DNA of 64,000 nt from Bacteroidales bacterium (lineage in GTDB: Bacteria > Bacteroidota > Bacteroidia > Bacteroidales > Paludibacteraceae), in assembly GCA_015061165.1 (NCBI GenBank), contig SUXC01000014.1, positions 3,584-67,583 on the forward strand, written 5' to 3'. The position numbers were made by a program, and so were the translations under genes. Positions 1-17,105 of the stretch are shown here, in pieces; the stretch's first letter is position 1; each line of letters begins with the position of its first letter. Below the pieces are notes generated by a model. The model made no database searches. It was not told the DNA's origin and saw nothing but the letters and a program-made list of their open reading frames with translations.

Positions 1-496
1 CCTTAGGAAGACCTGAACGCTCCCATGCCTTGAGATAAGGTTCGGGGTCAGGTTTGCCCTTCGTGACATCAAAAGCCGTAATCATCCTATCGGGGTGAAA
101 AACAGGAGGCAACGCCGTATTCAGATTATCAATCAGCGTGCGCATACCGCTACCCGTTACCACCCAAATCTGGTGTCCCTGCGATTGTACATAGCGCAGC
201 ACATCAGCCACACCATCAATAACCACCGTGCCACCGACTTGATCCGCTAACACGTGAAAGCGCGCAGACTTCTCACCATAGATTTGCTCGACCTCATCGG
301 GTGTCGCTTCGCGATGGCGTTCCTTGAGTATCGCCTCACGGATAATAGACTCGCCTGTTCGGCCTTCGTTGATATAACAATCGCGAGCAGTGAATGAAAG
401 ATTATGCGCCTTCATCACCTCTTCCCACGCCACAGCATGGTGGGGCATTGAGTCAAACAACACCCCATCCATGTCAAAGAAATATGCTTTTTCCAT
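1..496 (-). CDS. HAD-superfamily hydrolase (beta-phosphoglucomutase-like); C-terminal end lies outside the window
   Basis: Reverse-strand reading frame from ATG (rc of 494-496) to the window edge. The N-terminus MEKAYFFDMDGVLFDS carries HAD motif I (DxDGxL). This ORF is not in the supplied track because it is truncated. Confidence 0.8.
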   Translation of the reverse strand, partial: MEKAYFFDMDGVLFDSMPHHAVAWEEVMKAHNLSFTARDCYINEGRTGESIIREAILKERHREATPDEVEQIYGEKSARFHVLADQVGGTVVIDGVADVLRYVQSQGHQIWVVTGSGMRTLIDNLNTALPPVFHPDRMITAFDVTKGKPDPEPYLKAWERSGLPK

Positions 497-513
497 AGTT
501 ATTGCTTATTGAT

Positions 514-3500
514 TTATTCCTTAAAGAACTTGCCAATACGCGTACCTACTTGTACGATATACATACCTGCTGGCAACGAAGCCACCGGCAATGTAGTGAC
601 AGCGCCTTCTACCGCATGGCTCATCACCGCTTTGCCATTCAGGTTATAGACCACAATGGTTTGCTTTGCATCCGCCTCGTTCATAAACACATTGAGGTAT
701 GCCTCAGCAGGATTAGGATAGAGCATGAGCGCCAAACGGTTGTCTGCTGGCAGGTTCTCTACATCCACCGTGCTTTCATCCGCAAAACTGATAGGTTGGG
801 TGCAAGTCTCGCCAAACACGTTGGTGATGAATGCACGTACATACGAGCCTTGATAACCTGCGTAGGAGAACGTGTTGCCTATACCCACCACAGTGCTACG
901 AGCAGATGATGCCGCGCTGGAAGTCTTGTCCGTGGCATAGATCCAATGTACCAATCCATTGGCATGGATAGTGATGGTCTTATTGGTTTCATCCACATGG
1001 ATAGCACTGATACGTGGGGCTTTGCCTTCGCCCGTACCTGCTGGTTCGTAGCAGAAATAGCTCTCGCCTTTGCGCATAGCATCTTTCAGTTCGTCGGTGG
1101 TAAGATCCTCCATGAGCATGAAATTGTAGTTGCGGAAGAGTTGGTCGTTGTTGTGCGCATCATCGCATGAGTAGCCATAAACAGGGCGATGAGGCATAGT
1201 GCGCTGCAAGATTTGATCCCATAGGATACGGTCGTTAGGGCGACGATTGCCTTGGTTGTACACCTCCAAACCAATCAATGATGGGAAGGTAAGGAAGTTA
1301 TTGGCATGCCAACCCGGACCATCTTTTTGGGTCTCACTATAGGTATTGTCAATACTCCAATACTGTCCTGGGTGGTTGATGATTTGCATACCGCCGAGGG
1401 CGTAGGTGTAGGCATATGACTCCTGCAAAGAAGCAAACTCCTGTCCTTGACGACCCGTGAAGAAATCGTTGTGGTGGTTGAATTGTCCGCCTGTGCGCTC
1501 GCTCCAACTGTTGGTATTATCCTTGCTGAGCTCATTGCCCGGAACAGCCAACATACCCAATGCAGCAGGGTCGCGTGCAGGTACGGTGCTCATATATTGG
1601 GGGAATAACTCCCATGGATAAGGGTTGTAGTCATGGTCGGTGAGGGAGAGAATCTTATAGCCCGCAGCATGGTATTTGTCCACAACGTAGGCGGTGGTGA
1701 AGCCATCGCTGGCGTCGTTGGATTGGGTGGTATGGGTATGGAAATTGCCCTTGAATTGGTTGATAGTAGCCCAATCAATATCGGCGTATGGATTGTTGGA
1801 TATAGCAGTATTAATGGTCTGTCCTTCCACCACTTTGACATACACCGCACGGTGCGCCTTGGTGGTAGTGCCGTTGAGTTCGATGTCCAAATAGAAGCCA
1901 TAGATACCACTTTCTGGCGATGAAATCGTATAAAACTCTTCGCCATTGCTACCCTTGCTGAGGGTGATAGCAGAAGAAGGTTGGTTGTTATGATTCATGC
2001 GGAAATGGACATTATAGCCATTCTTGTTGGCAATCTTAACGGACATCTTCACAGATGTACCTGGATGTACGACAGCAGGCTCTACCTTAAAGTATTCCAA
2101 ATCAATATCCGAACTACCCCATGCAGTTTCTTCCACCGTGAGTTGGTTGGTCAGATAGGAGTAACGGACATTGGCTTTCAGGCAGTTAGCCGATACAGTG
2201 GTGCTGACCAATTCGCCCATGTCACTACCCGAGTTCACACTACCATAATGCACGGAAACGGTCTTGTCATCGGTGAGGGAGATAGTGGCTGTCAGTTCGT
2301 AGTTGCTGCCAATAGTCATAGTGGTGCCATTGACCTTGAAGTGCTCAGAAGAAGCAGCAGACTGCTCGTAGCTACCGTCTGCAAACACAGCCACACGCTG
2401 CCAAGAAGTAGTCTTGCGGGTGTTCTTAAAGCCGATGTCTTTGGGCGAAGTGAGTAGCAAATCGCCATCGCAGTTGCTACCACTGTTGAGGTTCCAGTAG
2501 TAGGAGTATTTCTTGCTATCCACAGGAATCTCTTTGATTAAGAGTTGTGCGGGAGTAGCAGTCTTGCCATCGCGGTAGAAATTGCCCTTTTGTGTAGGTG
2601 TGCCATCGCAGGTGAGCGAGGTGGTGCCTTCGCCCTTCATGAAATACCATGTGTGGGCTGTATAATCGGTAGTCTGATAGTTATTGGCTATTCTCGCTCC
2701 CATAGTAGGAACTACGCTTGGTGGACCTTGCACTACTTCTCCGAAGACTAATCCCCATGTACGGTCATCGTGCTCGCCCATGACATCCAAGACGTATGAG
2801 AGATAACCTCGGTTATTGAGCCACTGATTGTAGTAATCAATCTCATCGGTTGTCCAATGGGTATCAGCCGATGTTTGTACAAAAGCAAAGCGAGAGTCGG
2901 TTGGCGTAAGCCGCTCGTTCTCGATGAAACCGCGCATTTCGTATTTATTATACCAAAAAGCAGGGGAGAACATAGCGCATTTGCCAAATAGTTCGGGGTG
3001 CTTCATGGTGGCATAGAAAGCGAAGAGTCCTGCCACATCTGCACCCATGATGGTGCATGCCGATTTATCCGATGAAATCGCATATTTCTGCTCGAAGGCA
3101 GGCTTAAAGTCCTCTACGAATCCTTTGAGGAAAGCATCCGCTTGACCTGTACCCGCGAAGTCCTCGTTCGCCCAAGGAGTAAACTCAGGTAATTGGGCAT
3201 AAATCACGGCTATGATGCCTACTTCAAATCCTTGCTCCTCCAATTCAGCCACCGATTTTGCTACGCCCCATGAGTCGGAATAGAGAATACGGTCGCCCAT
3301 TTCGGTATCAGAACCTGCATCGCGGTAGCGTTGGTGGCGACCAAACATATAGGTAACGGGGTATTGCTTGGTATTGTCATAGTTGGTAGGCAAGAGGATT
3401 TGTACAGGATAATCCTTGCCTGCAAATGTCCAATTCTCTACGATTCCAACGGCAGTATAGGTGTTTCGCCAGCGTGCTACCACATCGGGATTGCCAACGG

Positions 3501-3825
3501 TCTTGCGATTGGACACCTCGCCATTGGAAGCAGTGACTTCCACATATTTCCAATCGGGTCCGCAGACGTATTTATATCCATCGGATGCACTAATATCGGC
3601 AGTCGTAATACCTGCTACCGTAACGGTGAATTGGTCTTTTCCTTCCACTTTGTTCATGGCCACACCCGCCCCCGCAGCCCAACTGCTGAGTTCGGGAAGA
3701 GCACCTACAACGTAGCAATGGGTAGTGCCAGTAGGAACATTTACGCGAAAAGTAACATCGGCTCTTATTGCCGAAGAGATTGCCAAACAAATGCCAATCA
3801 ATAGAAGAGAGAATTGCTGTCTCAT
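514..3825 (-). CDS. Secreted multidomain protein: CBM20-like / esterase-like / PHP phosphoesterase / T9SS C-terminal sorting domain
   Basis: 1103-aa ORF with signal peptide MRQQFSLLLIGICLAISSAIRA. Esterase-family block YPVTYMFGRHQ...IMGADVAG. PHP motif GNFHTHTTQSND...LTDHDY. The C-terminus LYPNPA...VVYNLNGK...GMYIVQV is typical of Por/T9SS sorting domains. Confidence 0.8.
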   Translation of the reverse strand: MRQQFSLLLIGICLAISSAIRADVTFRVNVPTGTTHCYVVGALPELSSWAAGAGVAMNKVEGKDQFTVTVAGITTADISASDGYKYVCGPDWKYVEVTASNGEVSNRKTVGNPDVVARWRNTYTAVGIVENWTFAGKDYPVQILLPTNYDNTKQYPVTYMFGRHQRYRDAGSDTEMGDRILYSDSWGVAKSVAELEEQGFEVGIIAVIYAQLPEFTPWANEDFAGTGQADAFLKGFVEDFKPAFEQKYAISSDKSACTIMGADVAGLFAFYATMKHPELFGKCAMFSPAFWYNKYEMRGFIENERLTPTDSRFAFVQTSADTHWTTDEIDYYNQWLNNRGYLSYVLDVMGEHDDRTWGLVFGEVVQGPPSVVPTMGARIANNYQTTDYTAHTWYFMKGEGTTSLTCDGTPTQKGNFYRDGKTATPAQLLIKEIPVDSKKYSYYWNLNSGSNCDGDLLLTSPKDIGFKNTRKTTSWQRVAVFADGSYEQSAASSEHFKVNGTTMTIGSNYELTATISLTDDKTVSVHYGSVNSGSDMGELVSTTVSANCLKANVRYSYLTNQLTVEETAWGSSDIDLEYFKVEPAVVHPGTSVKMSVKIANKNGYNVHFRMNHNNQPSSAITLSKGSNGEEFYTISSPESGIYGFYLDIELNGTTTKAHRAVYVKVVEGQTINTAISNNPYADIDWATINQFKGNFHTHTTQSNDASDGFTTAYVVDKYHAAGYKILSLTDHDYNPYPWELFPQYMSTVPARDPAALGMLAVPGNELSKDNTNSWSERTGGQFNHHNDFFTGRQGQEFASLQESYAYTYALGGMQIINHPGQYWSIDNTYSETQKDGPGWHANNFLTFPSLIGLEVYNQGNRRPNDRILWDQILQRTMPHRPVYGYSCDDAHNNDQLFRNYNFMLMEDLTTDELKDAMRKGESYFCYEPAGTGEGKAPRISAIHVDETNKTITIHANGLVHWIYATDKTSSAASSARSTVVGIGNTFSYAGYQGSYVRAFITNVFGETCTQPISFADESTVDVENLPADNRLALMLYPNPAEAYLNVFMNEADAKQTIVVYNLNGKAVMSHAVEGAVTTLPVASLPAGMYIVQVGTRIGKFFKE

Positions 3826-3851
3826 AGGTATAATGATTTTGTACGTTTATA

Positions 3852-4610
3852 CTATAAAAATAGTTCTTGTGGATAGTCAATGTGTGTGAGGAAAAGGCCT
3901 TCGGCAGGGGCAGAATCTCCTGCGGCGCAGCGGTTGTGTTGTGCAATGACCTCGGCAAACTGCTCTTTGGTCATCTTACCACGACCCACCTCAAACAATG
4001 TTCCTACTACGGCACGCACCATATTGCGCAAGAAGCGGTCGGCTGCAATAGTGAACACAGCGTGTCCGTTGCCTAATTCTCGCCATTCTGCAAGCGTGAG
4101 GTCGCAAATAGTAGTTTTCACATCCGTATTCGTGCGGCAGAATGAAGCAAAATCCTGTTTGCCAATCAACCATTGCGCTGCCTCGTTCATGGCAGCAAAG
4201 TTCAGTCCTGGGCGCACGCGCGTGGCTTGTTGGCAGAGGAAAGGATCTTTGTGATCCACGATATGGTACTCGTAGGTGCGGCGCACGGCAGAGAACCGCG
4301 CATGCGCATCATCCGTTACAGGATAGATGTCAAAAATAGCGATGGAATCGGGCAAAATGCCGTTGAGGCGAAAGAGCAAATTTTGGCGATTGGCAATTGG
4401 CGATTGGCAATTGGCGAGATCGAAATGCGCATACATCTCGCGCGCATGGACACCCGCATCGGTGCGACCAGCGAAAGTGAGTGGTATCTCCTCGCGGAAA
4501 ATCATAGCCAACGCCTGCTCCATCGTCTCTTGAACAGTAATGCCATTGGGCTGGCGTTGCGAGCCGTGAAAGGCAGTGCCATCGTATGCAAAGCGAATGA
4601 AATAACGCAT
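3852..4610 (-). CDS. truA: tRNA pseudouridine(38-40) synthase TruA
   Basis: 252 aa. MRYFIRFAYDGTAFHGSQRQ and the catalytic GRTDAGVHA motif are canonical TruA. Confidence 0.93.
   Translation of the reverse strand: MRYFIRFAYDGTAFHGSQRQPNGITVQETMEQALAMIFREEIPLTFAGRTDAGVHAREMYAHFDLANCQSPIANRQNLLFRLNGILPDSIAIFDIYPVTDDAHARFSAVRRTYEYHIVDHKDPFLCQQATRVRPGLNFAAMNEAAQWLIGKQDFASFCRTNTDVKTTICDLTLAEWRELGNGHAVFTIAADRFLRNMVRAVVGTLFEVGRGKMTKEQFAEVIAQHNRCAAGDSAPAEGLFLTHIDYPQELFL
4384..4418. repeat. 5 x 7 nt TGGCGAT/TGGCAAT module inside truA
   Basis: tggcgat tggcaat tggcgat tggcaat tggcgag. On the minus strand it encodes ANCQSPIANRQ. Confidence 0.9.
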
Positions 4611-4618
4611 AATTCTTG

Positions 4619-4648
4619 CCTTTAACCTTTAACCTTTAACCTTTAACC
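4619..4648. repeat. CCTTTAA x 4 array at the flippase stop / truA start junction
   Basis: cctttaacctttaacctttaacctttaacc. It contains the flippase stop codon (4629-4631). Confidence 0.9.
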
Positions 4649-6167
4649 AAACATTTCGCACTTGCTGGTTGATTTCGGGGGAGAGGTCTTTGAACCATGC
4701 TACGGCACAACCTCCTCCGATGAGGACTATGGTGCGAATAATACTACTTAACCATATATTATTGATTGGCAAGTAGGCTTGCCACAGGAAATTCAGATTG
4801 AGTATCACCAAAATCAGAAGAAGAATCTTCAGATGTTGGCGCGTGAAAGTGGGTGCACGGAGCGTGTAACGCACTGTCAATGTGATTAATAGGAAATATA
4901 TTGCGTAAGCAATGAGATTGCTAACGGCTGCTCCATTCATACCAAAATAAGGAATGAGAAGATTATTGAGCACTATGGATAGAGCCGTTAGAATAAAGGA
5001 AAACAATAATGAGAAGGCATAGAAGCGGGAATAGTTGAGTGCCGAAGAACTAAACGAGCAAACGGCAATAATGAGTTGGCTGGTGCCTAACATCAATACC
5101 ACTTGGCGGGCAGTAGCGTATGTCTCGCCATTAGGCAGAATATGGAAGATGAGATCAATATTGAGCCAAATGAGGCAAAGAATCATGCCGCCTATGAGCA
5201 AGAGCGTACTGCTGACCTGCTGCATAAGGTGAGCCGTTTCACGCTGATTATTTTCCTTGATAGCCGTTGCTAATTGTGGTGAGGCAATGGCTGTCATGGA
5301 GCGATAGGGTATGCTGACCATTACGGCTATATAGGTAGCAATGGCAAAGATACCTGTATAATTTAGTCCCATCTCAGCGGTAATAAAGAAGGAAGAGAGC
5401 GTTGGTGCAAGCACGCTGGCTACTGCGGAAACGAGCAAAAACCCAGTGTAGAGCAGGTACTGGCGCACCAATGGGCGGTTCTGGCGCAAGAACTCCCAAT
5501 CGGGGCGGAGCGACACTTCACCTAACGAGAATAGATAGACCATATTGCAGCACATAGCCACAGCATATACGCCACACAAGGCTACCACGAAACCATCTAT
5601 ATCCACCACGCGAAACGCATAGAGCAAATAAGCAAGGAGCAATCCGATACGCGTGATGAGTTCGCGCACAGCACGAGGCACTACGATATGCATACGCACA
5701 TTAGCATTGGTCTCAAAAACAGTCTGATAGAGCATAAAGAACGCCATCGGGAGTACCATATAGTAGTACTCTACAAAGAGAGGGGACTTCTCCCCAAACC
5801 AATGACTAAGTGGTTCGTGGCATGCACAATAAATAGCGGTGAATAGGGCGAAACCTACGAGTGGAACAATCAGTGTCCAGAAGAAAAAACCGTGGTCGGA
5901 AGAATTTTGAATTAAGAATTTTGAATTTTGAATTACTTTATTTGAGGAGCTCTTAAAGTGCGGATAGAAGCGAATAATAGAAGATGACGTGCCGAGTTGG
6001 GCAAGTCCGATGAAGAGAGTGGCAGCATCTACCAATACGCGCGCCAGACCAATCTCCTCGGCTGTGAGGAAACGGGTGAGTACGAAGAACGTAGTAACAA
6101 AGCCCACCGCCACCCCAATATAGGTGACGATGGTGCCTTGAAAACTCTGTTTGGCGATGATGCCCAT
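4629..6167 (-). CDS. Wzx/MATE-like oligosaccharide flippase (polysaccharide biosynthesis protein)
   Basis: Polytopic membrane ORF. I place the start at the MGIIAKQSFQGTIVTYIGV methionine (rc ATG 6165-6167), because the track extension to 6239 reads through a repeat array. The stop codon lies inside the CCTTTAA array. Confidence 0.78.
   Translation of the reverse strand: MGIIAKQSFQGTIVTYIGVAVGFVTTFFVLTRFLTAEEIGLARVLVDAATLFIGLAQLGTSSSIIRFYPHFKSSSNKVIQNSKFLIQNSSDHGFFFWTLIVPLVGFALFTAIYCACHEPLSHWFGEKSPLFVEYYYMVLPMAFFMLYQTVFETNANVRMHIVVPRAVRELITRIGLLLAYLLYAFRVVDIDGFVVALCGVYAVAMCCNMVYLFSLGEVSLRPDWEFLRQNRPLVRQYLLYTGFLLVSAVASVLAPTLSSFFITAEMGLNYTGIFAIATYIAVMVSIPYRSMTAIASPQLATAIKENNQRETAHLMQQVSSTLLLIGGMILCLIWLNIDLIFHILPNGETYATARQVVLMLGTSQLIIAVCSFSSSALNYSRFYAFSLLFSFILTALSIVLNNLLIPYFGMNGAAVSNLIAYAIYFLLITLTVRYTLRAPTFTRQHLKILLLILVILNLNFLWQAYLPINNIWLSSIIRTIVLIGGGCAVAWFKDLSPEINQQVRNVWLKVKG
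5902..5936. repeat. 5 x 7 nt GAATTWW module inside the flippase CDS
   Basis: gaatttt gaattaa gaatttt gaatttt gaattac. It encodes KVIQNSKFLIQNS. Confidence 0.9.
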
Positions 6168-6183
6168 AATGCTTCGCGTTATT

Positions 6184-6330
6184 GGTTCGCTGCGCTCACG
6201 AAAGTGATTCGCTTCGCTCATGAAAGTGGTTCGTTCCACTCACGAAAATGGTTTCGCTTCGCTCACGTACGCTTTAGCCACTTTCGTCGCCATCGGCGAC
6301 CACTTTCGCACCTATGGTGCCACTTTCGCA
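6184..6330. repeat. Four direct 22-mers followed by three inverted partial copies
   Basis: Direct units ggttcgctgcgctcacgaaagt / gattcgcttcgctcatgaaagt / ggttcgttccactcacgaaaat / ggtttcgcttcgctcacgtacg (6184-6271). Inverted ccactttcg at 6278, 6300 and 6320. Confidence 0.85.
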
Positions 6331-6342
6331 AACTATGTTTGC

Positions 6343-7596
6343 TTATTTCTCGATGCCAAGCAACTCTACCTCGAAAATGAGAGTAGAATATGGAGGGATA
6401 GAGCCAGCTGCTTGTGAGCCGTAACCCAACTCTTGTGGGATATAGAAGCGGAACTTGCTACCTACAGGCATGAGTTGTACGCCTTCGGTCCAACCTTTGA
6501 TAACTTGGTTCAAACCAAACACGATAGGTTCGCCACGCTCCACGCTGCTGTCGAATACAGTACCATCGATGAGGGTACCATGATAGTGTACTTTCACGCG
6601 ATCAGTAGCAGCAGGTTTCTTGCCACGACCCATCTTCAGTACCTCGTATTGAAGACCGCTATCGGTAACTTTTACGCCCTCTTTGAGTGCGTTTTCAGCC
6701 AAGAACTTCTCGCCGTCTTCTTTCACATTGCCGTACTTGATGTTGTTCATTGTGGTTTGGATATACTCGCCTGCTTGTTCGCCCGTCATGGTGGTGTCGC
6801 CGAGCAAACCATTGATAAAGCCTTGTTTGATGAGTGCGAAATCAGTAGCCAAACTTGGTTCACCAATCAAGCCTTGTGCCTCTTGGTCCTTGATGTTCTT
6901 ACCAATTTGCTCACCCATGCTTACGATTTGTGGGTTCTTCACTTTGCTCTTCAAACCTTTATTGATATTGGTGATGAAGTCCTTTGTGAGCTGACCTGTA
7001 GAGTCCATGAGCAATACATAGCGAGCTACCTCGTCGCCATTGAGATAACCAAAAGCATAGTTGATACTGTCGCTTTGGTTGTTGAGGGCGATCGTTTGCA
7101 CCTTGTAAACGCATTTTGCTTTTACCACTTTGCCTGGCTCGATGCTATCGTTGAGCACAGATGCAGCTTGATATTGTGCTTGGAAGTAGTTGCGTGCATC
7201 TTCTGCCTTCATCACAGTAGTGTCATGACGTAAACCGTTTACCAAACCTTGGAAGAAAATCTTTTGGTTGATAGCCCATGCTGGGTTGTCTGCCAAACCT
7301 GTCTCTTCAGCGCGCTTGATAGCCATACCGATGTTCTTACCGATATTGCCTGCCTCGCTCAACTCCTCAACTGTGCCATCGTAACCGCGTTGGAGCGCAT
7401 CAATAAACTCGGTAACGGTCTCCATAGAGGTGTCATTGCGAAGTTGATACATTTTCATTTGTGCACCGTTCACTAAACCAAGTGCATAGTTCATACTGTC
7501 GTTTTGGTTGGTGAGGGCAACTGTTTTGATTTGATAGGTGTTGCCACACGAAATCATTGCCATAGCAGCAATGAGAAGAATAGATACTTTTTTCAT
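6343..7596 (-). CDS. FKBP-type peptidyl-prolyl cis-trans isomerase lipoprotein (duplicated N-terminal domain)
   Basis: 417 aa. Lipoprotein signal MKKVSILLIAAMAMISCG. C-terminal FKBP core VKVHYHGTLIDGTVFDSS...GWTEG...IPPYSTLIFEVELL. Confidence 0.88.
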   Translation of the reverse strand: MKKVSILLIAAMAMISCGNTYQIKTVALTNQNDSMNYALGLVNGAQMKMYQLRNDTSMETVTEFIDALQRGYDGTVEELSEAGNIGKNIGMAIKRAEETGLADNPAWAINQKIFFQGLVNGLRHDTTVMKAEDARNYFQAQYQAASVLNDSIEPGKVVKAKCVYKVQTIALNNQSDSINYAFGYLNGDEVARYVLLMDSTGQLTKDFITNINKGLKSKVKNPQIVSMGEQIGKNIKDQEAQGLIGEPSLATDFALIKQGFINGLLGDTTMTGEQAGEYIQTTMNNIKYGNVKEDGEKFLAENALKEGVKVTDSGLQYEVLKMGRGKKPAATDRVKVHYHGTLIDGTVFDSSVERGEPIVFGLNQVIKGWTEGVQLMPVGSKFRFYIPQELGYGSQAAGSIPPYSTLIFEVELLGIEK

Positions 7597-7626
7597 TGTT
7601 AATTATATATTTTATTTTATTGGTTT

Positions 7627-8211
7627 TTATTCGATTCCGAGCAACTCTACCGTGAAGATAAGGGCTGCGTATGGAGGGATGTTGGCTCCTGCACCGCGCT
7701 CGCCATATGCCAATTGGTATGGCAAGTAGAGTTTGTATTTGCTACCGATAGACATGAGTTGCAGACCTTCTGTCCAACCTTTGATTACTTGGTTGAGCCC
7801 AAAAGTGATGCTCTCGCCACGTTTGTAGCTGCTATCAAATACGGTGCCATCGATGAGGGTACCCTCATAGTGCACGCGCACTTTGTCGGTGGCTTTAGGT
7901 TTTTGTCCGATGGTTGCCTCCAATACTTCGTATTGCAAACCGCTTTCGGTAACTTTCACACCTTCGCGCTTTGCGTTCTCTGCGAGGAATGCCTCGCCTG
8001 CTGCTTTGGCTTCGCCTGCGATTTTTGCTTCGAGTTCGCTGAAGAACTTGCCCAACACCTGTTGCGCCTCTTGATAAGAGATCTGTGGTTGGTTCTTCTC
8101 TAATACATCCTTGATACCTGCTGCCAAATCAGCATATTCGAGGGAAGTAACGCCACTTCCCATCAGGTTTTGACCCATGCTCAGGCCAATTGCATAACTA
8201 ATTTTATCCAT
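7627..8211 (-). CDS. FKBP-type peptidyl-prolyl cis-trans isomerase
   Basis: 194 aa. FKBP core VRVHYEGTLIDGTVFDSS...VIKGWTEG...IPPYAALIFTVELL. Confidence 0.9.
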   Translation of the reverse strand: MDKISYAIGLSMGQNLMGSGVTSLEYADLAAGIKDVLEKNQPQISYQEAQQVLGKFFSELEAKIAGEAKAAGEAFLAENAKREGVKVTESGLQYEVLEATIGQKPKATDKVRVHYEGTLIDGTVFDSSYKRGESITFGLNQVIKGWTEGLQLMSIGSKYKLYLPYQLAYGERGAGANIPPYAALIFTVELLGIE

Positions 8212-8216
8212 TTCGT

Positions 8217-8834
8217 TTATTTTGTTAGTTGATTCATACGGGTGATATATTTGCCGATAATATCGAACTCAAGGTTCACTTGTGTGCCTACCTCAATATA
8301 CTTGAAATTGGTGTTGTCGTGGGTGTATGGAATGATACATACACTGACATATCCTTTTCCATCCACCACATCGGGTTCGCAGACAGTAAGGCTGACACCA
8401 TTGATACTAACTGACCCTTTGTCCACGCAGAAGTAGCCACGCATAGCCATCTCACGGGTACTCTCATACTCAAAGCGGTAGTACCAACTGCCTTCCGTCT
8501 CTCTGACCTCAATACAACGAGCCGTTTGGTCCACATGTCCCTGTACGATATGTCCGTCTAATCGCTCGCCGAGCAGCATACTACGCTCGAGGTTCACCCA
8601 ATCGCCCTCTTTGGCTTCGCCAAGGTTGGTTCGGTTCAGCGTTTCTTGCATGGCGGTAACGGTATATAGGTCACCGTCCATCTTTACCACCGTGAGGCAT
8701 ACGCCATTGTGCGCGATAGACTGGTCAATACTCAGCGGTTCACCATAAGGGTTGCGCAGCGTGAAGTGCTTATTGCCTTGTTCTTGCTCAATCTGTACGA
8801 TTTGAGCCATTGTTTCTACTATTCCTGAAAACAT
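8217..8834 (-). CDS. ribE: Riboflavin synthase
   Basis: 205 aa starting MFSGIVE. Two lumazine-binding repeats (NGVCLTV / NGVSLTV) are typical of the riboflavin synthase alpha chain. Confidence 0.9.
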   Translation of the reverse strand: MFSGIVETMAQIVQIEQEQGNKHFTLRNPYGEPLSIDQSIAHNGVCLTVVKMDGDLYTVTAMQETLNRTNLGEAKEGDWVNLERSMLLGERLDGHIVQGHVDQTARCIEVRETEGSWYYRFEYESTREMAMRGYFCVDKGSVSINGVSLTVCEPDVVDGKGYVSVCIIPYTHDNTNFKYIEVGTQVNLEFDIIGKYITRMNQLTK

Positions 8835-8836
8835 AC

Positions 8837-10351
8837 TTATTTTTTCTTAATGAGTGCCTTTCCATCCAAACGGTAGAAAATGACACAATATATAATAAGG
8901 AGTATAGTGCCTATACCCATTTTAATCCATTCGTTGATTGGCAATAAGTGTGCCAAAGTGTAATATCCTGCCAAAAGTGTCAGAACAAGCAGGGTGTATA
9001 TGCCAATTCGGCGCAAATCGTATGGTATCTCGAGATGTTTGCGTCCCACGAAATAAGAGAGCAACATAATCACGAGGTAGCATACGGTACTGCTGGCTGC
9101 GGAAGCCATATAACCTATGCGAGGTACGAAGATGGCTTGCAGCGCAAAGGTAATGACTACTCCGATAATGGAGAAGTAGGCACCCCATTGCGTTTTGTCG
9201 GTGAGTTTGTACCAAAAACTGAGGTTGAAATATACGCCTTGGAAGATATACGTCCAGAGGACAACAGGTACGATTTTTAGTCCTTCCCAATAGGCGGGGG
9301 CGATAATAAATTTTAGTAGATCAAGGTAGAATATCATCCCCAACAAAATCATGTAGGAGAAGATAATATAGTATTTCATTGCATCAGCGTAGGCAGCCAC
9401 GGATTCGCGGTCTTTGTGCTTGGCAAAGACGAATGGTTCGTAGGCATAGCGGAAAGCCTGCGTGAACATCATCATCACCATTGCCACCTTGAAACATGCG
9501 CCGTAGATGCCCAATTGCGCTTGTGCATCGGCTCCATCGTAGAAGAAGGGGAATAAGATACGGTCCAGCGTTTGGTTCATGATACCGCACACACCCAATA
9601 CCAAGAGGGGCAACGAGTAGCGAAGCATCTGCTTCAGTAATTTGCCAGAAAATAGTTGTCGGGAGTCGGGAGTCGAGAGTCCGTAATCTGCGCGAAAGCC
9701 TTCAAGAATCGCTGGCAACAAACACAATGTCTGTATACCCGTAGCCATGATGTTTGCCACAAAGACATACCCTACTCCATAGTTGGGATTATACCACGAA
9801 GAGATGATTGCCCAATCCTGAATCTTCGGACAGAGTACGAGGAAGAAGAGATTGAGAATAATATTGAGGAATACGAATAGGAGTTTGAGTGCAGCAAACT
9901 GCAATGGGCGTTTCTTGTAGCGCAAGTACGCAAACGGTATGCTGGCAAAAGCATCCATTGCCACTACTATACCGAGCAGTGCAATGAACTCGCTGTGTGT
10001 AGGATAACCCAATGCGTTGGCTATAGGCATTCGCCATACCACACACGCTACCGCGAAAAGCAGTGATGTGGTAAAAAGCGCAATGAGCGAAGTACTATAA
10101 ACCGTCTTGGGATTTTCTTCGGCTTTGTTGGCAAAGCGGAAGAAGCCTGTTTCCATACCATAGGTGAGGATTACCAAAAGCAGTGCCGTCCACGCATAGA
10201 GGTTGGTAACTATACCATAGTCGGACTGCTGTTGCAGCACGTATGTGTATAGCGGAACGAGCAGCCAGTTGAGAAACTTGCCGACAATGGATGACACGCC
10301 ATAAATGGCGGTCTCCTTAGCGAGTATTTTCATTTGCAGGTTGCTGCTCAT
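8837..10351 (-). CDS. Wzx/MurJ-like oligosaccharide flippase family protein
   Basis: 504-aa polytopic membrane ORF. ATGA start/stop overlap with rsmI upstream. Confidence 0.8.
   Translation of the reverse strand: MSSNLQMKILAKETAIYGVSSIVGKFLNWLLVPLYTYVLQQQSDYGIVTNLYAWTALLLVILTYGMETGFFRFANKAEENPKTVYSTSLIALFTTSLLFAVACVVWRMPIANALGYPTHSEFIALLGIVVAMDAFASIPFAYLRYKKRPLQFAALKLLFVFLNIILNLFFLVLCPKIQDWAIISSWYNPNYGVGYVFVANIMATGIQTLCLLPAILEGFRADYGLSTPDSRQLFSGKLLKQMLRYSLPLLVLGVCGIMNQTLDRILFPFFYDGADAQAQLGIYGACFKVAMVMMMFTQAFRYAYEPFVFAKHKDRESVAAYADAMKYYIIFSYMILLGMIFYLDLLKFIIAPAYWEGLKIVPVVLWTYIFQGVYFNLSFWYKLTDKTQWGAYFSIIGVVITFALQAIFVPRIGYMASAASSTVCYLVIMLLSYFVGRKHLEIPYDLRRIGIYTLLVLTLLAGYYTLAHLLPINEWIKMGIGTILLIIYCVIFYRLDGKALIKKK
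9661..9681. repeat. 3 x 7 nt GGGAGTC module inside the second flippase CDS
   Basis: gggagtc gggagtc gagagtc. It encodes LSTPDSR. Confidence 0.8.
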
Positions 10352-11016
10352 TCTTTCTTTCCCTCTACGATCAAAACGATTTCACCTTTCGGTTGATTTT
10401 GTTTGTAGTGTTCTGCGAGTTCCAATAGGGTGCCACGTTGGGTGTCCTCGTGCAGTTTGCTAATCTCTCGACTGACGCTTGCTCGGCGATCAGCACCCAT
10501 CACCTCTGCCAATTGTTCCAATGTCTTTACCAATCGGAAGGGCGATTCGTAGATAATCATCGTATGCGTCTGCTCGGCAAGAATCTTCATGCGTGTCTGG
10601 CGACCTTTCTTCTGGGGTAGGAAGCCCTCGAAATAGAAGCGGTCGTTGGGCAAGCCCGAATCCACTAATGCGGGTACGAATGCTGTGGCACCGGGCAGAC
10701 ATTGTACTTCCACGCCACGCTCTACGCAGGCACGCACCAGCATAAACCCAGGGTCGGAGATACAGGGTGTACCTGCATCGGAGATCAGTGCTACGGTCAT
10801 ACCTGCTGCAATGCGATTAGCCATATCGTCGCTTGTCTCATGTTCGTTGAACTTATGATGGCTCTTGAGCGGGGTATGGATATCGTAGTGCTTGAGCAGC
10901 ACGGATGAGGTGCGCGTATCTTCAGCAAGAATGAGGTCCACCTCCTTCAGCACGCGCAGCGCACGAAAAGTGATGTCCTCCAAATTGCCAACGGGTGTAG
11001 GTACTACATAAAGCAT
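10348..11016 (-). CDS. rsmI: 16S rRNA (cytidine1402-2'-O)-methyltransferase RsmI
   Basis: 222 aa. MLYVVPTPVGNLEDITFRALRVLKEVDLILAEDTR is the RsmI N-terminus. Confidence 0.92.
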   Translation of the reverse strand: MLYVVPTPVGNLEDITFRALRVLKEVDLILAEDTRTSSVLLKHYDIHTPLKSHHKFNEHETSDDMANRIAAGMTVALISDAGTPCISDPGFMLVRACVERGVEVQCLPGATAFVPALVDSGLPNDRFYFEGFLPQKKGRQTRMKILAEQTHTMIIYESPFRLVKTLEQLAEVMGADRRASVSREISKLHEDTQRGTLLELAEHYKQNQPKGEIVLIVEGKKE

Positions 11017-11038
11017 AATTTTGAATTATGAATTATGA
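11017..11038. repeat. GAATTWW units at the rsmI start / upstream gene stop junction
   Basis: aatttt gaattat gaattat ga. It contains the stop codon at 11033-11035. Confidence 0.75.
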
Positions 11039-11758
11039 GAAGCGGCGTTTGAGTACGTTCTCGAAGAGTTGCACTGCAGTGGACTCTTTGTCCCAATCGA
11101 AGTTATTGCGCACATAATCCATGGCCTCGCTTAGCGAACCGAGACCATTAATTTCATCCAAGGTCTTTTGCATCAATTCACCGTTGCCTGCAAAGAGTTC
11201 GCGTTGGAAAAGGAAACGGTCGCCTAAAGAGATGGCTTGACGGATATCCTCTACGGCTGTGCCAAAGAGCGAAGTCTGAAGAGGTTGTGTAGCGTTGTGT
11301 AGCTGTTGTGTAGCGTTGTGTAGTGGTTGTGTAGGTTCTGCCACAGGCTCTGCCTTTGCTTCTGGTTGTGGAGCAGGTGTTGGCTCTGTTACTGGTTCAA
11401 CTACCTCTACTTCATCTAAAATCTCTAATGACTCTATTGGTTCTATAGATTCTAACGGTTCTATAGATTCTATAGTTTCTTGCTTCTCTAATTCTTCTTT
11501 TACTTCCTCTTGTGGTTCTTCTTCCACGATGAGTTCGATTTCCACTTCGGGCTCAGCAGTTTGTGCTGCCACAGCACCTGTAGCAGCGAGGGCTGCCACT
11601 TCGGCTTGCAAGGTGGCTATCAAGGCTTTCGCCTCATCGCCTTCTTGCCTCATCGCCTCATTACTAGCCTCTAATTGCGCTACACGCGCCTCCAGAGCAG
11701 AAAGTTTCTGCTCCAGAGTAGTCGTGTAGTCGGTTATTGCTTGAATAAGATTGTTCAT
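11033..11758 (-). CDS. Hypothetical protein: coiled-coil N-terminus, acidic/Pro-rich repeats, conserved C-terminal domain
   Basis: 241-aa ORF tightly packed between rsmI and the POT transporter. It has internal repeats (ESIEPLESIEPIES; PLHNATQQLHNATQPL). I recognise no family. Confidence 0.6.
   Translation of the reverse strand: MNNLIQAITDYTTTLEQKLSALEARVAQLEASNEAMRQEGDEAKALIATLQAEVAALAATGAVAAQTAEPEVEIELIVEEEPQEEVKEELEKQETIESIEPLESIEPIESLEILDEVEVVEPVTEPTPAPQPEAKAEPVAEPTQPLHNATQQLHNATQPLQTSLFGTAVEDIRQAISLGDRFLFQRELFAGNGELMQKTLDEINGLGSLSEAMDYVRNNFDWDKESTAVQLFENVLKRRFS
11283..11334. repeat. GTTGTGTAG 10/11-mer array inside the hypothetical CDS
   Basis: Five copies. It encodes PLHNATQQLHNATQPL. 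Confidence 0.8.
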
Positions 11759-11761
11759 AGA

Positions 11762-13288
11762 TTACTTTGTTGCATCTTCGAGTTTCTTCATCATTGCGAA
11801 CATAAAGATGGCTGCCACAGCGCAAACGCCTACGAATACGCTCCATACGCCCCACAAAGGCATATCGCCCCAAAGGTTACCACCGATAGATACGAGGTAG
11901 TTACCGATAGCGGTAGCCACGAACCAGCCACCCATCATCATACCTTTGTACTTAGGAGGAGCCACTTTCGTAACGAAAGAGATACCCATTGGACTGAGGA
12001 GCAACTCAGCGAAGGTGAGGATCAAATAGGTGTAGATGAGCACGTTGGCATTCACGAATGTTGGGTCGCCCGTTACGCGAGCCAACTCCTGTGCGTTAGG
12101 AGTGAGCAGACCTATACAAGCCACAGCCATCACGATGTAGGCGATAGTAGCCACCACCATACCCAGGGCAATCTTGCGTGGAGCAGATGGCTCTTTGCCT
12201 TTCTTAGCAAGTGCACCAAAGAGTGCCATGCTGAATGGAGTGAGTGCCACTACATAGAATGGGTTGAACTGTTGGAAGATAGGTGCGCTCAAAGTGATTC
12301 CTTCTGGAGAGATATGGAGGTACTTGTATGCCAATACGCCCAATGCAGCAACGATAGCCACGCCTGAGAAGACTTTTGCTTTTGCAGTCTTGCTTTGTAC
12401 CAATGAGAAACCAGCATATACGATGATGACAATCATCACGAGATTGATGATATCAAACCACATGGTTTGTACACCAGTGCAGAGTGGTTGTACGAACTCG
12501 TTAGCGAAGTAGGTGAGTGTCAAACCGTTTTGGTGGAATGCCATCCAGAAGAAGATTACCACAGCGAACACGAGGCAGAGAGCCACAATGCGCTTTTTGG
12601 TTTGCTCTGGGGTCAGTTCTTCTACTTTTGCACCAGTAGCAGCTGCTTGCTTAGCAGAGTTCTCTACGTGCTTAAACCAAGGACGGCAAGCGTAGTATAT
12701 GACAATACTGAGAATCAATGATGCGCAAGCTACCATGAATGCGAAGTGATAACTATCGTTCACGCTCACGCCAAGACTGGTTTGTGCCCAATCCATGATC
12801 TTCACGGCTGCTGTAGGAGCGAACATTGCACCAATGTTGATAGCCATGTAGAAGAGTGAGAAAGCTGCATCGCGCTTGTCTGCGTATTTAGGATCATCAT
12901 AGAGATTACCTACCATTACTTGCAAGTTACCTTTGAACAAGCCAGTACCGAAACTGATGAGTACCAATGCAGCAATCATCGCACCCATAGCGGTGCCGCC
13001 TGCGCCCAATGGAATAGCCAGCAGAATGTATCCGAGGAACATCACCATAATACCGATGGTTACGCACTTGCCGTAGCCAATCTTGTCAGCCAAAATACCG
13101 CCTACGAGTGGCAAGAAATATACCAACGCGAGGAAGGTAGAATAGATTTGTCCTGCGGTGGCAGCTTCTAATCCGAAGTTCGCACGCAAGAATAGCGCAA
13201 ATACGGCTAACATGGTGTAGTAGCCAAATCGTTCGCCTGTGTTGGCAAGTGCCAATGCAAACAGACCTTTAGGTTGATTTTCAAACAT
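11762..13288 (-). CDS. Proton-dependent oligopeptide transporter (POT/PTR2 family MFS)
   Basis: 508 aa, multi-TM. The N-terminal GERFGYYTM matches the PTR2 ExxERFxYY signature. Confidence 0.9.
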   Translation of the reverse strand: MFENQPKGLFALALANTGERFGYYTMLAVFALFLRANFGLEAATAGQIYSTFLALVYFLPLVGGILADKIGYGKCVTIGIMVMFLGYILLAIPLGAGGTAMGAMIAALVLISFGTGLFKGNLQVMVGNLYDDPKYADKRDAAFSLFYMAINIGAMFAPTAAVKIMDWAQTSLGVSVNDSYHFAFMVACASLILSIVIYYACRPWFKHVENSAKQAAATGAKVEELTPEQTKKRIVALCLVFAVVIFFWMAFHQNGLTLTYFANEFVQPLCTGVQTMWFDIINLVMIVIIVYAGFSLVQSKTAKAKVFSGVAIVAALGVLAYKYLHISPEGITLSAPIFQQFNPFYVVALTPFSMALFGALAKKGKEPSAPRKIALGMVVATIAYIVMAVACIGLLTPNAQELARVTGDPTFVNANVLIYTYLILTFAELLLSPMGISFVTKVAPPKYKGMMMGGWFVATAIGNYLVSIGGNLWGDMPLWGVWSVFVGVCAVAAIFMFAMMKKLEDATK

Positions 13289-13381
13289 AATTAGTTGTTT
13301 TTTATGGTTAATAATTGTTTTTGCTATCGGTCGTGTATCTTACCCTTAATTCTATTCCGCCTATATACACAAAATTCCGTG

Positions 13382-13389
13382 CAAAGGTA
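13382..13389 (-). promoter_or_regulatory. -7 box TACCTTTG (TAnnTTTG) for the POT transporter
   Basis: rc of CAAAGGTA. A CAAA (-33 TTTG) lies 20 nt further upstream at 13410-13413. 94 nt to the ATG. Confidence 0.6.
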
Positions 13390-13644
13390 ATATTTTTTTT
13401 GCATATATGCAAATAAAATCGCACGGGAGCACAAAAAAAGTTTCTATTTACTGAAGAATGTGTGACACATACCGAGTTTTTTTGGCGACCATTTCGCGAC
13501 CACCATTGGACATCTATAGGACATTGGTGGGCTTTCGGTGGCACTTTTGTGCCTCGTTTCTTCGCTAACCACCCGATTACCACTAGCCACGTCATGGTTG
13601 CCGGCGAATGGCGCTATAATTTTGCTGCATATTCGCTGCACGCT

Positions 13645-13671
13645 TCGTAGTCTCATCGTAGTCTCATCGTA
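13645..13671. repeat. 2.5 x 11-mer tcgtagtctca
   Basis: Read directly in the 540-nt spacer downstream of the LHH gene. Confidence 0.8.
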
Positions 13672-13712
13672 CCCGAGAAAACCTATCAAAAACACACCTC
13701 TTGTTAATACAA

Positions 13713-13747
13713 ATGCGGAAGTGGCTGTTTTATAACCACTTCCGCAT
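13713..13747 (-). terminator. Hairpin downstream of the LHH nuclease gene
   Basis: Perfect 12-bp stem atgcggaagtgg / ccacttccgcat with an 11-nt loop. T-rich flanks on both strands. Confidence 0.55.
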
Positions 13748-13829
13748 GGGTGTAATTTTTCGAAAAAAAAGTTTTCGCGCACCGAAAATTAACAGAGTTA
13801 AACATAACTCTCTAATTTCTATTCGTTTT

Positions 13830-14354
13830 CTACAATGTTGAGTAAATTTTCAACTTTTCTTCTGTAGTAAAGGCAGCAAAACGAGCTTTCCAATATGCCG
13901 ACTTTTCGTGGTCGAATTGTCCGCGGTCGATTTCCGACTCTTTGCCTACTTGGTGCAAGATTGGGTTATTACCTTCGCCCATATGTTCTGCCCAAGTAAG
14001 TTCCGCAAAAGGAGAGTCTTGCTGCTGTCCTATATGATGCAATTCATATGGATCTCCATTAGGATCGCGCGGCGGAAAGCCTTCTCCAATAAGGTCAGCA
14101 TTGTTGTACTCTGCCCAACGGTCGTAGTCTTTGAGGCGTTTTTGCGTGCTGGTTTTGAGCCAAGTATTTCTGCGAATGGAGAAATCTGCCCAATTGATAT
14201 CCGTTCGGCATAATGCCCAACGTTCTCCGATTAGGCATGCTTGTAGTTTAGCGCGCATATAAATCTCCGCTTCTTCCATAGTAGCAATGTAACGGATAAC
14301 ATCTTCAGGCCAGTTAGTTCGCTGACTAATGAGTTGTTGCTCTTGAGATGTCAT
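13830..14354 (-). CDS. Stand-alone HNH/EndoVII-fold nuclease of the LHH type
   Basis: 174 aa. The segment DPYELHHIGQQQDSPFAELTWAEHMGEGNNPILH fits the LHH toxin-nuclease signature (LHH ... H ... LH). No signal peptide and no large N-terminal delivery domain. Confidence 0.7.
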   Translation of the reverse strand: MTSQEQQLISQRTNWPEDVIRYIATMEEAEIYMRAKLQACLIGERWALCRTDINWADFSIRRNTWLKTSTQKRLKDYDRWAEYNNADLIGEGFPPRDPNGDPYELHHIGQQQDSPFAELTWAEHMGEGNNPILHQVGKESEIDRGQFDHEKSAYWKARFAAFTTEEKLKIYSTL

Positions 14355-14485
14355 TTCTCTCCTAAATTGTTAGTAGGAATATTCAAACGGCTGTTGCAGT
14401 TTGGGCATTTTGGTAGCACCTCTTTAATGAAGCCACCTACGGTAAATACATGTTTGCATCGTAAGCAACGACGAAGTTGTAGCAT
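14351..14485 (-). CDS. 44-aa zinc-ribbon peptide, translationally coupled to the LHH nuclease gene
   Basis: Hand-translated as MLQLRRCLRCKHVFTVGGFIKEVLPKCPNCNSRLNIPTNNLGEK. It has two CxxC pairs 16 residues apart. Its TGA overlaps the nuclease ATG (ATGA). It is too short for the ORF track. Confidence 0.5.
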   Translation of the reverse strand: MLQLRRCLRCKHVFTVGGFIKEVLPKCPNCNSRLNIPTNNLGEK

Positions 14486-14513
14486 AAAAGTTCGCGTTAA
14501 GAAATTAGTCTTT

Positions 14514-14618
14514 TTATTTTTTTAATAAATCACCAATAATCTTAACTGCAGTTTTTACTAAGTTAATCACATCATTACGTTCAACATCCGAAACTTTTCC
14601 ATTAGTTTTTGGTTTCAT
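14514..14618 (-). CDS. Possible 34-aa ORF
   Basis: Hand-translated as MKPKTNGKVSDVERNDVINLVKTAVKIIGDLLKK. It lies 28 nt upstream of the zinc-ribbon ORF on the same strand. The only support is position and an amphipathic-helix-like sequence. Confidence 0.25.
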   Translation of the reverse strand: MKPKTNGKVSDVERNDVINLVKTAVKIIGDLLKK

Positions 14619-14732
14619 AATTTTTTTCCTTTCTTGTCTTATTTTCCGCCTACTCTTTGTCGGATTTTCGGCACACTCCGTTGGTTAATTGTTTGAATTA
14701 TTGTTTGTTATCTTGATTTCGTATATACATAC

Positions 14733-14755
14733 AAAAAGCGTGAACTTTCGTTCGC
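14733..14755 (-). terminator. Intrinsic terminator or attenuator between the rod-like element and the small ORFs
   Basis: Minus strand: gcgaac-gaaa-gttc(a)cgc followed by TTTTT. Confidence 0.5.
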
Positions 14756-14761
14756 TTCAAT

Positions 14762-14900
14762 TTGATTGTTTGAGGTTCTGGACTACCTTAGTAATTCAAA
14801 TTTACGCACGGAAAACTCACGCTGGTAACGCGAGCGTGCATAAACCGTACTTGAATTACTAAATGGTTGTTTTGAAAGTGTCCAGTTTTCAAACAATCAA
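14762..14900 (-). ncRNA. 139-nt rod-like nested-helix element (candidate structured leader or ncRNA; could also be a DNA-level imperfect palindrome)
   Basis: Five nested helices read by eye on the minus strand: ttgattgtttga/tcaaacaatcaa (12 bp), ctggac/gtccag, acc..ttagtaattcaa/ttgaattactaaggt (15 bp with a 2-nt bulge), gtacgg/ccgtgc (one G-U, which favours the minus-strand RNA), and cacgct/agcgtg. Confidence 0.4.
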
Positions 14901-15006
14901 GTCTGGGCTTATAACGCTATATTAAATATGTCGGGCAACGGTATCGTTGCAGTTTAGTTATGAACTATGAGTGATGAATGATAAGTAATTTTAGGGAGTT
15001 AGTTAT

Positions 15007-15325
15007 TTAGTTAGTATCTTTTTGCTTAATACCTATTGCGTTGGTAAGTTCTACCCATCTGGTTGAAGACATAGTAAAAGCATTTAATCCTGCCTCTACT
15101 CTAATCCCCTCGAATTCGAGGGGGTTAAAATTAGGGTTATACAACGTCTCCATATACCCAAGAACTCAATCGTATACGATTTCTCATCCAATTTGCGACA
15201 ACACCATTAGGATCTATGGCGTTTTTCATTCTCGCAATATCCGTCATGCAGATATAATCAACGTTACCATGTTTGATAGTTTTAACGGCAACTTCTTTTA
15301 CGATAATTTCACTTTTCTTTGCCAT
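15007..15325 (-). pseudogene. KilA-N domain gene remnant (two frameshifts, C-terminally truncated)
   Basis: Three reading frames together give MAKKSEIIVKEVAVKTIKHGNVDYICMTDIARMKNAIDPNGVVANWMRNR / TIEFLGIW / ETLYNPNFNPLEFEGIRVEAGLNAFTMSSTRWVELTNAIGIKQKDTN. This resembles the N-terminal half of Bacteroidales KilA-N proteins. The usual C-terminal half is absent. Confidence 0.6.
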
Positions 15326-15351
15326 AATCCATTGTTTTCGAAAATCGGCTG

Positions 15352-15359
15352 CAAAGGTA
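15352..15359 (-). promoter_or_regulatory. -7 box TACCTTTG upstream of the KilA-N remnant / LHH locus
   Basis: rc of CAAAGGTA, 27 nt from the remnant ATG. This is the only consensus box I found upstream of the LHH genes. Confidence 0.6.
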
Positions 15360-15445
15360 GTGAAATATTTTGAATTGTGCAAATAAAAATGCCATTCCAC
15401 TTGAAAATAATATGCTCTTTTTTCGCTATTTTCTATTTGAAGTGG

Positions 15446-17100: not shown

Positions 17101-17105
17101 ATTTT

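Follow-up and report, generated by a model that had tools for sequence, protein, structure and literature searches.

A 30-nucleotide tract shared by truA and a wbqC-family gene of a Paludibacteraceae genome is a short heptanucleotide array rather than a discrete mobile module

Repetitive DNA that is tolerated in frame within surface regions of unrelated proteins, as is the tract described here, has a counterpart in the Rickettsia palindromic elements (RPE), which Ogata reportedly described in 2000 as palindromic sequences of ~100 to 150 nt with defined ends, while the cyanobacterial STRR heptamers, said to have been reported by Mazel in 1990, are likewise dispersed repeats. Heptamers are the commonest class of long simple sequence repeats (SSRs) in prokaryotes, with polymerase slippage as their proposed cause (Mrazek 2007, as related in PMC4679880). 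According to the account given there, long SSRs have units of 5 to 11 nt among which heptamers are dominant, and they are strongly over-represented, sporadic across phyla, and variable in steps of one unit, all of which is shared by the arrays of this study (PMC4679880). In Xanthomonas, the GGGAATC repeat has ~185 dispersed loci, the majority of which lie between ORFs of the same orientation (Rehm et al. 2015, PMC4692102). The GGGAATC/GGGGAYT repeats of Xanthomonas and Nostoc place one unit at many loci; like our arrays, they are found near start and stop codons with a preference for ~4 units, and their length and sequence differ between close relatives (PMC4692102). TAACTGA direct repeats are found in Beggiatoaceae, Cyanobacteria, and a few Bacteroidetes, including Paludibacter propionicigenes (MacGregor 2015, PMC4679880). 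These also form heptamer arrays just upstream of start codons, have a similarly puzzling distribution across phyla, and obey the same stop codon logic, in that forward stops in all frames terminate ORFs, while translation occasionally passes through arrays of the reverse orientation at the peripheries of proteins (PMC4679880). Lastly, the neuO gene of E. coli K1 carries 3 to 53 units of AAGACTC in its coding region, which function as a phase-variation switch with frequent OFF alleles (PMC13001214). None of the papers found in our literature search connects Paludibacteraceae with tandem repeats.

The subject of this study is a 64-kb window, by which we mean the whole stretch of DNA that was analyzed, and whose closest proteins come from metagenome-assembled genomes (MAGs) labelled Paludibacteraceae. 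An earlier note on this DNA had drawn attention to a 30-nt module present in two unrelated genes. Direct comparison confirmed that positions 4385-4414 and 16920-16949 are identical at all 30 bases, both reading GGCGATTGGCAATTGGCGATTGGCAATTGG, and 100 dinucleotide-preserving shuffles yielded no expectation of a 30-nt match of this kind. Each copy lies on a minus-strand ORF with Pfam support (TruA and WbqC) and is translated as NCQSPIANR in the same frame, just as the note had stated, and its assertion that protein homology does not account for the identity was likewise borne out. The 30-mer consists of 7-nt units in tandem, with TTGGCGA and TTGGCAA alternating to form a period-14 superstructure. 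Tandem Repeats Finder (TRF) reported TTGGCAA x4.7 at 4383-4415 and x4.3 at 16920-16949, with 100% match at period 14, while direct reading extended the truA array to 4383-4417 (minus strand), where five units alternate between TCGCCAA and TTGCCAA in gene sense, beginning and ending with TCGCCAA, and encode L65-Q76 (LANCQSPIANRQ). Since a 7-nt unit visits all three frames within 21 nt, a rotation of one peptide must result wherever an array of a given unit is read in frame and in sense, and for TTGGCRA this peptide is P-I-A-N-[RC]-Q-[SL]. Thus, the shared peptide and frame are consequences of the repeat and not independent evidence, and the common frame of the two copies, with a same-phase prior of ~1/3, is weak evidence in itself. 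A mismatch-tolerant search added two further TTGGCRA arrays, making four in the window, so the family is not limited to the two copies first noticed. The third array occupies the linker of a gene for a PagL-like acyloxyacyl hydrolase (52429-52488, plus strand; 8.6 units with a 21-nt superperiod, encoding QSPIANS QSPITNS QSPIAKR), and the fourth is found in the opposite orientation in a histidine-kinase gene (40574-40609, plus strand; LAIGDGQLAIGD). From these results, we conclude that the 30-mer is a short tandem heptanucleotide array and not a discrete mobile module. The description of it as a lineage-restricted repeat read in frame stands, but its description as a discrete element does not, as it is an array of 7-nt units whose number varies.

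The first host gene (3852-4610, minus strand, 252 aa) encodes the tRNA pseudouridine(38-40) synthase TruA, as judged from its matches to PF01416 (E 1e-36) and PDB 1dj0 (E 5e-38), residue D51 within the invariant RTD motif, and the TruA fold of its AlphaFold2 (AF2) model. The tract lies between the catalytic GRTDAGVH block and LNGILP, which is the most length-variable segment of the family, as had been proposed, and its peptide is absent from distant TruA orthologues. With this absence and with more than two copies in the window, neither of the outcomes that the note had named as refuting it was found. Among 76 diverse sequences, the segment from HFD to LN spans 12 to 25 aa with a mode of 14 to 15, compared with 18 aa in the window. 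Thus, the tract largely replaces the ancestral loop with a net gain of 3 to 4 aa. In the AF2 model, which was built from the alignment of the same 76 sequences (pLDDT 95.7), residues 65-74 form a loop between a strand (55-64) and a helix (75-85) and have the lowest confidence of the protein. The model superimposes upon E. coli TruA (1dj0) with a TM score of 0.92 and an rmsd of 1.6 Å, and the TruA fold is accordingly predicted to be intact despite the tract.

The second host gene falls within an ORF at 16531-17211 with a match to the Pfam WbqC family (PF08889, E 1.5e-20). WbqC homologues are 177 to 228 aa long and cover only 84% of this ORF, while the proteins of relatives begin with MILPTTYMGP, which places the true start at the ATG at 17100, in agreement with the junction alignment, and yields a protein of 189 aa (16531-17100, minus strand). 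As a consequence, a further array at 17107-17132 is intergenic. Three alleles were found at the wbqC array site. The empty allele reads TTPDGPLTLS, belongs to 178-aa proteins, and is present in the relative L127, where it is 33 nt shorter than the TTGGCRA allele. The latter, in which the array encodes (S)NCQSPIAN(R), is the commonest among 120 WbqC clusters (78-94% identity), is carried by P0182, and has its tract unchanged in L136, even though the wbqC allele of L136 is only 86.6% identical. The third allele, found in L135, adds 26 aa and consists of GATGAGGC repeats together with an inverted repeat. Comparison with the empty site detected no target duplication.

The two tracts belong to a large population. 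TRF returned 25 period-7 rows in the window versus 0.8 in shuffled sequence, which merge into 24 arrays. These include 12 pairs with identical units (0.25 at random) and 43 pairs with at most one mismatch (5.3 expected), and 22 of the 24 belong to one of three networks: CGATTSS (with TTGGCRA and GGGAATC among its members), GGTTAAA/GGTGTAA, and AATTCTT/AATTATG. GGGAATC, the second unit family of the window and literally the unit of Xanthomonas, has four loci (17107, 18286, 18718, and 49991), among them a CGATTCC array that separates the stop codon of lepB from the start of wbqC (17107-17132, minus strand), an in-frame array in a lepB loop (18286-18312, minus strand; NRNRESGIGNQ), and a long array of GGGAATC/GGGAGTC units upstream of lepB, in the intergenic region between divergent genes (18718-18803). 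Other arrays include AATTCAA/AATTCTT in frame within a loop of a Polysacc_synt flippase (5902-5935, minus strand; IQNSKFLIQNS), GGTTAAA running over the stop codon of the flippase gene to a point 8 nt short of the truA ATG (4619-4648, minus strand), TCATAAT at a gene junction (11017-11038, minus strand), and GAATTAT x8.6 directly upstream of a gene starting near 44482 (44431-44490, plus strand). Rfam and tRNA scans at the arrays returned no matches. About 8 to 9 arrays are solidly within genes, namely truA, wbqC, lepB, two Polysacc_synt flippases, an alpha/beta hydrolase, a histidine kinase (two arrays), and the PagL-like gene, and every unit among these is free of stop codons in the sense orientation, while units with stops in both orientations are always found at a gene junction, an ORF end, or in intergenic DNA. 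Overall, the arrays are located in surface loops, interdomain linkers, and gene junctions, many of them at operon junctions or immediately before a start codon. With ~9 solid in-gene arrays in ~58 kb of coding sequence versus ~13 to 15 in ~6 kb of non-coding sequence and ORF ends, the arrays prefer intergenic positions near ORF ends. Compared with the long SSRs described previously, several unit families coexist here at high density in a lineage of Bacteroidota and a sizeable minority of arrays is in frame inside conserved housekeeping genes. Occupancy of coding sequence and allele replacement at fixed protein loops are undescribed for the GGGAATC/GGGGAYT repeats, whose quadruplex rationale is also inapplicable to TTGGCRA, as it is not G-rich (PMC4692102). 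The units likewise differ from TAACTGA, though the relative L001 has the near-identical AAACTGA/AAACGGA, and here the arrays occupy internal enzyme loops in addition to protein ends.

The arrays were also compared with those of syntenic relatives (L001-L005, L127, L128, L133, L135, and L136; 80-96% nucleotide identity), all of which have a heptamer density of ~1 to 4 arrays per 10 kb. At every array site in positions 1-14,610 of the window, relatives were found to contain another copy number of the same unit, a different array, or nothing. At the GGTTAAA junction (4596-4663), the window has 4.3 copies versus 3.3 to 3.7 in relatives, a 7-nt step, while L004 has TCTAAYT units instead. The TCATAAT junction (11001-11053) varies between 3 and 4 copies among relatives in 7-nt steps, but is occupied by AAACGGA x11.3 in L001 and has no array in L004, and five alternative sequences fill the flippase loop at 5887-5949. 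The lepB loop reads KPDNVDNRNRESGIGNQKEKNPH in the window versus KPLTKEEEAAGKKNPH in L127 and L128. These two relatives also have an overlapping TAATG stop/start at the lepB/wbqC junction, where the window has ~40 nt of CGATTCC array, so that both arrays are absent from them. PagL-like homologues of 402, 409, 416, and 430 aa contain 2, 3, 4, and 6 copies of the 7-residue unit QSPIAN[SRH], respectively, which corresponds to 21-nt steps, each being three heptamers or 7 aa. Such steps are what unit-wise slippage filtered for reading frame predicts for this gene, and they recall neuO, where translated heptamers keep the frame only when the unit number shifts by three (PMC13001214). In fact, all changes observed within genes preserve the frame, being either 21-nt steps or whole replacements with a net length that is a multiple of 3. 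Unlike neuO, the truA and wbqC tracts have 4 to 5 units, and no single-unit (frameshift) allele of either gene was found among 20 contigs or 120 protein clusters, for which reason we infer slippage at these two tracts rather than observe it. All 120 TruA clusters, 120 WbqC clusters, and 20 contigs are in frame, which is a weak test given that truncated alleles are under-sampled in protein databases.

TruA sequences from 120 protein clusters (≥86% identical) are near-invariant outside residues 65-79, yet within this segment there are six alleles, four of which are composed of repeat families that differ from one another and recur at other sites of these genomes. Allele A (LANCQSPIANRQNLL, 10 clusters) consists of CCAATYG heptamers, allele B (IPDDNSKLLIQNSK, 39 clusters) of AATTCWW heptamers, allele C (LTDTLLPIPDSRTLT, 5 clusters) of TCCCGAT units of the GGGAATC family, and allele E (ISEEAMRREAERLV, 7 clusters, present in L002) of a GAGGCGA-type repeat, while allele D (IGCQLPDAGHIC, 58 clusters) is unique sequence and allele F is a 26-aa form from a single cluster. 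Allele E was at one point considered as the ancestral loop and then dropped, as the same GAGGCGA-type repeat, which encodes EAMRR, is present at 11624-11685 of the window and in the wbqC allele with 26 additional aa; the unique sequence of allele D is a better candidate and probably represents the ancestral state. Outside of the loop, the truA gene of the window is 97.0% identical to that of L003, which has allele B, and 95.9% identical to that of L001, which has allele D. A minimum of 14 changes is required to distribute the six classes over a tree built from TruA without its loop. L003 and the distant L133 (85%) both carry allele B, including the same unusual synonymous codons for the flanking FRLN, which indicates that a part of the apparent turnover is due to the exchange of alleles by homologous recombination.

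Taken together, the tracts are probably dispersed heptameric SSRs of a known kind that change in size through slippage, with selection for the reading frame acting as a filter. They have the features of long SSRs, as they are composed of at least three head-to-tail heptamer copies, exceed what is expected from composition, have no element termini, and exhibit unit-step polymorphism, the last being observed at the junction arrays and the PagL-like gene rather than at the truA and wbqC tracts. Arrays lengthen and shorten by whole units in the pattern of slipped-strand mispairing, and within genes selection would retain those outcomes that preserve the frame and those units that lack sense stops. 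The truA tract fills and largely replaces a variable loop and the wbqC tract is a +33-nt insertion, and the encoded peptide would be a tolerated by-product in both proteins. The structure of the repeat could contribute to this process as well. The G/T-rich complementary strand (TTGGCRA) is able to form a slipped hairpin via CAATTG and G-T pairs (-11.5 kcal/mol, z = -3.2, with 1 of 200 shuffles as good), which is distinct from an element-like palindrome and could favor slippage. The identity between truA and wbqC might simply reflect that both tracts belong to one family whose unit has no more than two variants (Y = C/T), or one tract may have been copied from the other. Purely local slippage does, however, leave several observations unexplained, namely the recurrence of a few units at unlinked sites and the filling of one truA loop by four families. 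The truA loop alleles also fail to track the gene tree. The alternating C/T pattern common to truA and wbqC over four units, for which we estimate a chance of ~1-10% given the family, hints at copying.

For these observations, a possible though tentative addition is that ectopic templated copying contributed to the truA tract, with a pre-existing TTGGCRA array as its source, most simply that of wbqC ~12.5 kb away. During repair or the restart of replication, microhomology might have primed either a template switch or short-patch gene conversion, and arrays would in this manner spread between loci as blocks, which complements slippage and does not conflict with it. Identity over 30 nt including the alternating C/T units is consistent with such an event, although the existence of only two unit variants makes a four-unit identity not very improbable, and the same 30-mer has arisen in unrelated bacteria. 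Indeed, the exact 30-mer was found just upstream of start codons on four metagenome contigs of unrelated GC-rich organisms, and (TTGGCRA)3 is present in >117 loci among the matches listed from representative genomes of many phyla, including Acidobacteriota, Verrucomicrobiota, Planctomycetota, Cyanobacteria, Burkholderia, and other Paludibacteraceae; the genome scan placed four of these loci in Paludibacteraceae, none overlapping the window. The ORF context of TTGGCRA arrays in other phyla is unreliable due to long spurious ORFs in high-GC genomes. The direction of copying would fit the distribution of the alleles, as the wbqC array is widespread in relatives and truA allele A is limited to ~10 close clusters. 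Both tracts are present in the window, L134, and L136, and neither is present in L135, but this co-occurrence derives from only three independent lineages. The probable ancestral D loop of truA contains TGCCA, a 5-nt match to the unit that is compatible with priming on microhomology, whereas the right-hand boundary of the tract has no junction signature. Unit families recur far above chance, and a TTGGCTA variant is common to the PagL-like and histidine-kinase arrays and absent in truA and wbqC. A broader and more speculative proposal is that specific heptamer units spread between unlinked sites in general by templated copying, for example when repair synthesis switches template onto another array. 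If true, existing arrays, protein loops, and gene junctions would be recurrent landing sites, and the arrays would constitute a class of non-autonomous repeats that spreads without element ends. This would explain the blooms of GGGAATC, TTGGCRA, and TAACTGA-like repeats in scattered phyla as well as the refilling of one truA loop by four families within a genus.

It seems unlikely that the arrays are maintained for a selected function, either as a nucleic acid signal that regulates adjacent genes (a site bound by a repeat-recognizing protein or a structure-forming motif) or through a useful QSPIAN peptide. Arrays upstream of starts and at operon junctions, as also noted for the TAACTGA and GGGAATC repeats, would suit a regulatory role, as would the slipped hairpin of the TTGGCRA strand, and the wbqC tract has been kept across diverged alleles. 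However, this tract is missing in some relatives, while sister strains have unrelated units in the same truA loop and most clusters have non-repeat sequence there. TruA is furthermore a cytoplasmic housekeeping enzyme and its loop is the part of the protein with the lowest model confidence. We know of no partner protein for the TTGGCRA tract.

Less likely still is a discrete miniature mobile element that inserts in frame in the manner of an RPE or a cyanobacterial small dispersed repeat. Identical, lineage-specific, in-frame copies in two unrelated genes and the clean empty allele at the wbqC site are what such an element would leave behind, and the earlier note had named the RPE as the established precedent, while remarking that the module is much shorter and lacks a palindrome. 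This likeness did not survive comparison, as the four TTGGCRA arrays have no common termini, conserved flanks, or target duplication, their lengths (30, 35, 36, and 60 nt) vary by the repeat unit, and the family is only one among 24 heptamer arrays with different units. Moreover, the sense strand is not palindromic (z = 0.37), the truA tract replaces more than it inserts, and, compared with an RPE, the tract is 30 to 35 nt of simple repeat that lacks ends. Slippage with selection for the reading frame remains our preferred explanation, and neither the truA nor the wbqC tract is likely to be the copy of an element that has ends or transposition machinery of its own. Assemblies are prone to errors in short tandem repeats, but an assembly or sequencing artefact is highly improbable here, given that independent ENA and JGI assemblies (L007, L008, L009, and L134) match the window in this region at 100% identity and the same protein sequence is found on 20 contigs.

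Dispersed heptameric SSRs are themselves already known; what is unusually clear in this lineage is their occupancy of coding loops and the turnover of the resulting alleles. An identical module in two housekeeping genes is in this case a simple-sequence phenomenon, and consequently has no place in a catalogue of new mobile elements. The heptamer microsatellites of these Bacteroidota are dense enough to rewrite the loops of conserved enzymes and other proteins (TruA, LepB, WbqC, and flippases), and they generate allele series that differ completely over ~40 nt within genes that are otherwise ~97% identical. As a result, heptamer tracts can confound orthologue alignment, gene calling (through false N-terminal extensions), and strain typing. 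At the same time, they offer a clean natural system in which to ask why 7-nt units are favored and how the same units reach many loci.

Four arrays of GGGAATC units lie in the window (17107-17132, 18286-18312, 18718-18803, and 49991-50024), and this unit is identical to that of a dispersed, quadruplex-forming repeat of Xanthomonas (PMC4692102). Therefore, an identical heptamer also blooms in a distant phylum. The exact 30-mer shared by truA and wbqC was likewise located outside the lineage, in four metagenome contigs from unrelated GC-rich organisms (L129 874-903, L130 11261-11290, L131 8055-8084, and L132 5800-5829). There, the copies are positioned directly 5' of ATG start codons and adjoin other heptamer arrays, CCAATGG/GGCAATG.

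A 10-nt GTTGTGTAGC family occurs at two sites in the window (11283-11334 and 40952-40992), fills the flippase loop of the syntenic relative L003, and accounts for a 21-nt in-frame indel between the window and the relative L135. Thus, the behavior is not strictly confined to 7-nt units. Upstream of the flippase gene, window positions 6181-6344 consist of tandem 22-nt units, each of which includes a GAAA-tetraloop hairpin (GCTCAC GAAA GTGAGC), and ~122 nt of this block are absent in both L135 and L136, which are 96% identical strains. The window is also enriched for tandem arrays with 11-nt units, plus one 23-mer (13 TRF rows vs 1.2 in shuffles). The longest of this class are intergenic (18655-18699, 39540-39606, 53090-53129, 59018-59062, and 29247-29307), and several short ones overlap ORFs; the 11-nt period is approximately one helical turn.

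Just past the left edge of the window, an unannotated minus-strand ORF downstream of a HAD hydrolase gene (~14784-16946 in L002, L003, L005, L007, and L008) has lengths of 670, 677, 702, 706, and 720 aa among close relatives, which suggests further in-frame repeat length variation. An indel-rich island was found at window ~13366-15445, of which L136 lacks a 1141-nt block and several smaller blocks. The island holds small ORFs, one with a toxin-like LHH domain according to the annotation of the independent assembly L134. The sole Rfam match within the window is a DUF805b RNA motif (RF02914) on the minus strand at 14647-14681, scoring 39.5 bits vs a gathering score of 35.6.

The wbqC gene of L135 (1196-1825) carries a +26-aa allele at the codon position where the TTGGCRA tract also sits, and this allele combines GATGAGGC 8-mers and GGCGA-type units with an inverted repeat (CTCCCTTCCCTTCAGGGAGGGG). 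Comparison with relatives places the true starts of wbqC and lepB at ATG 17100 and ATG 18535, respectively, and the longest-ORF starts of the window (16531-17211 for wbqC and 17141-18568 for lepB) are false N-terminal extensions. The source of these extensions is either stop-free arrays or upstream sequence, and stop-free arrays can lead gene callers astray.
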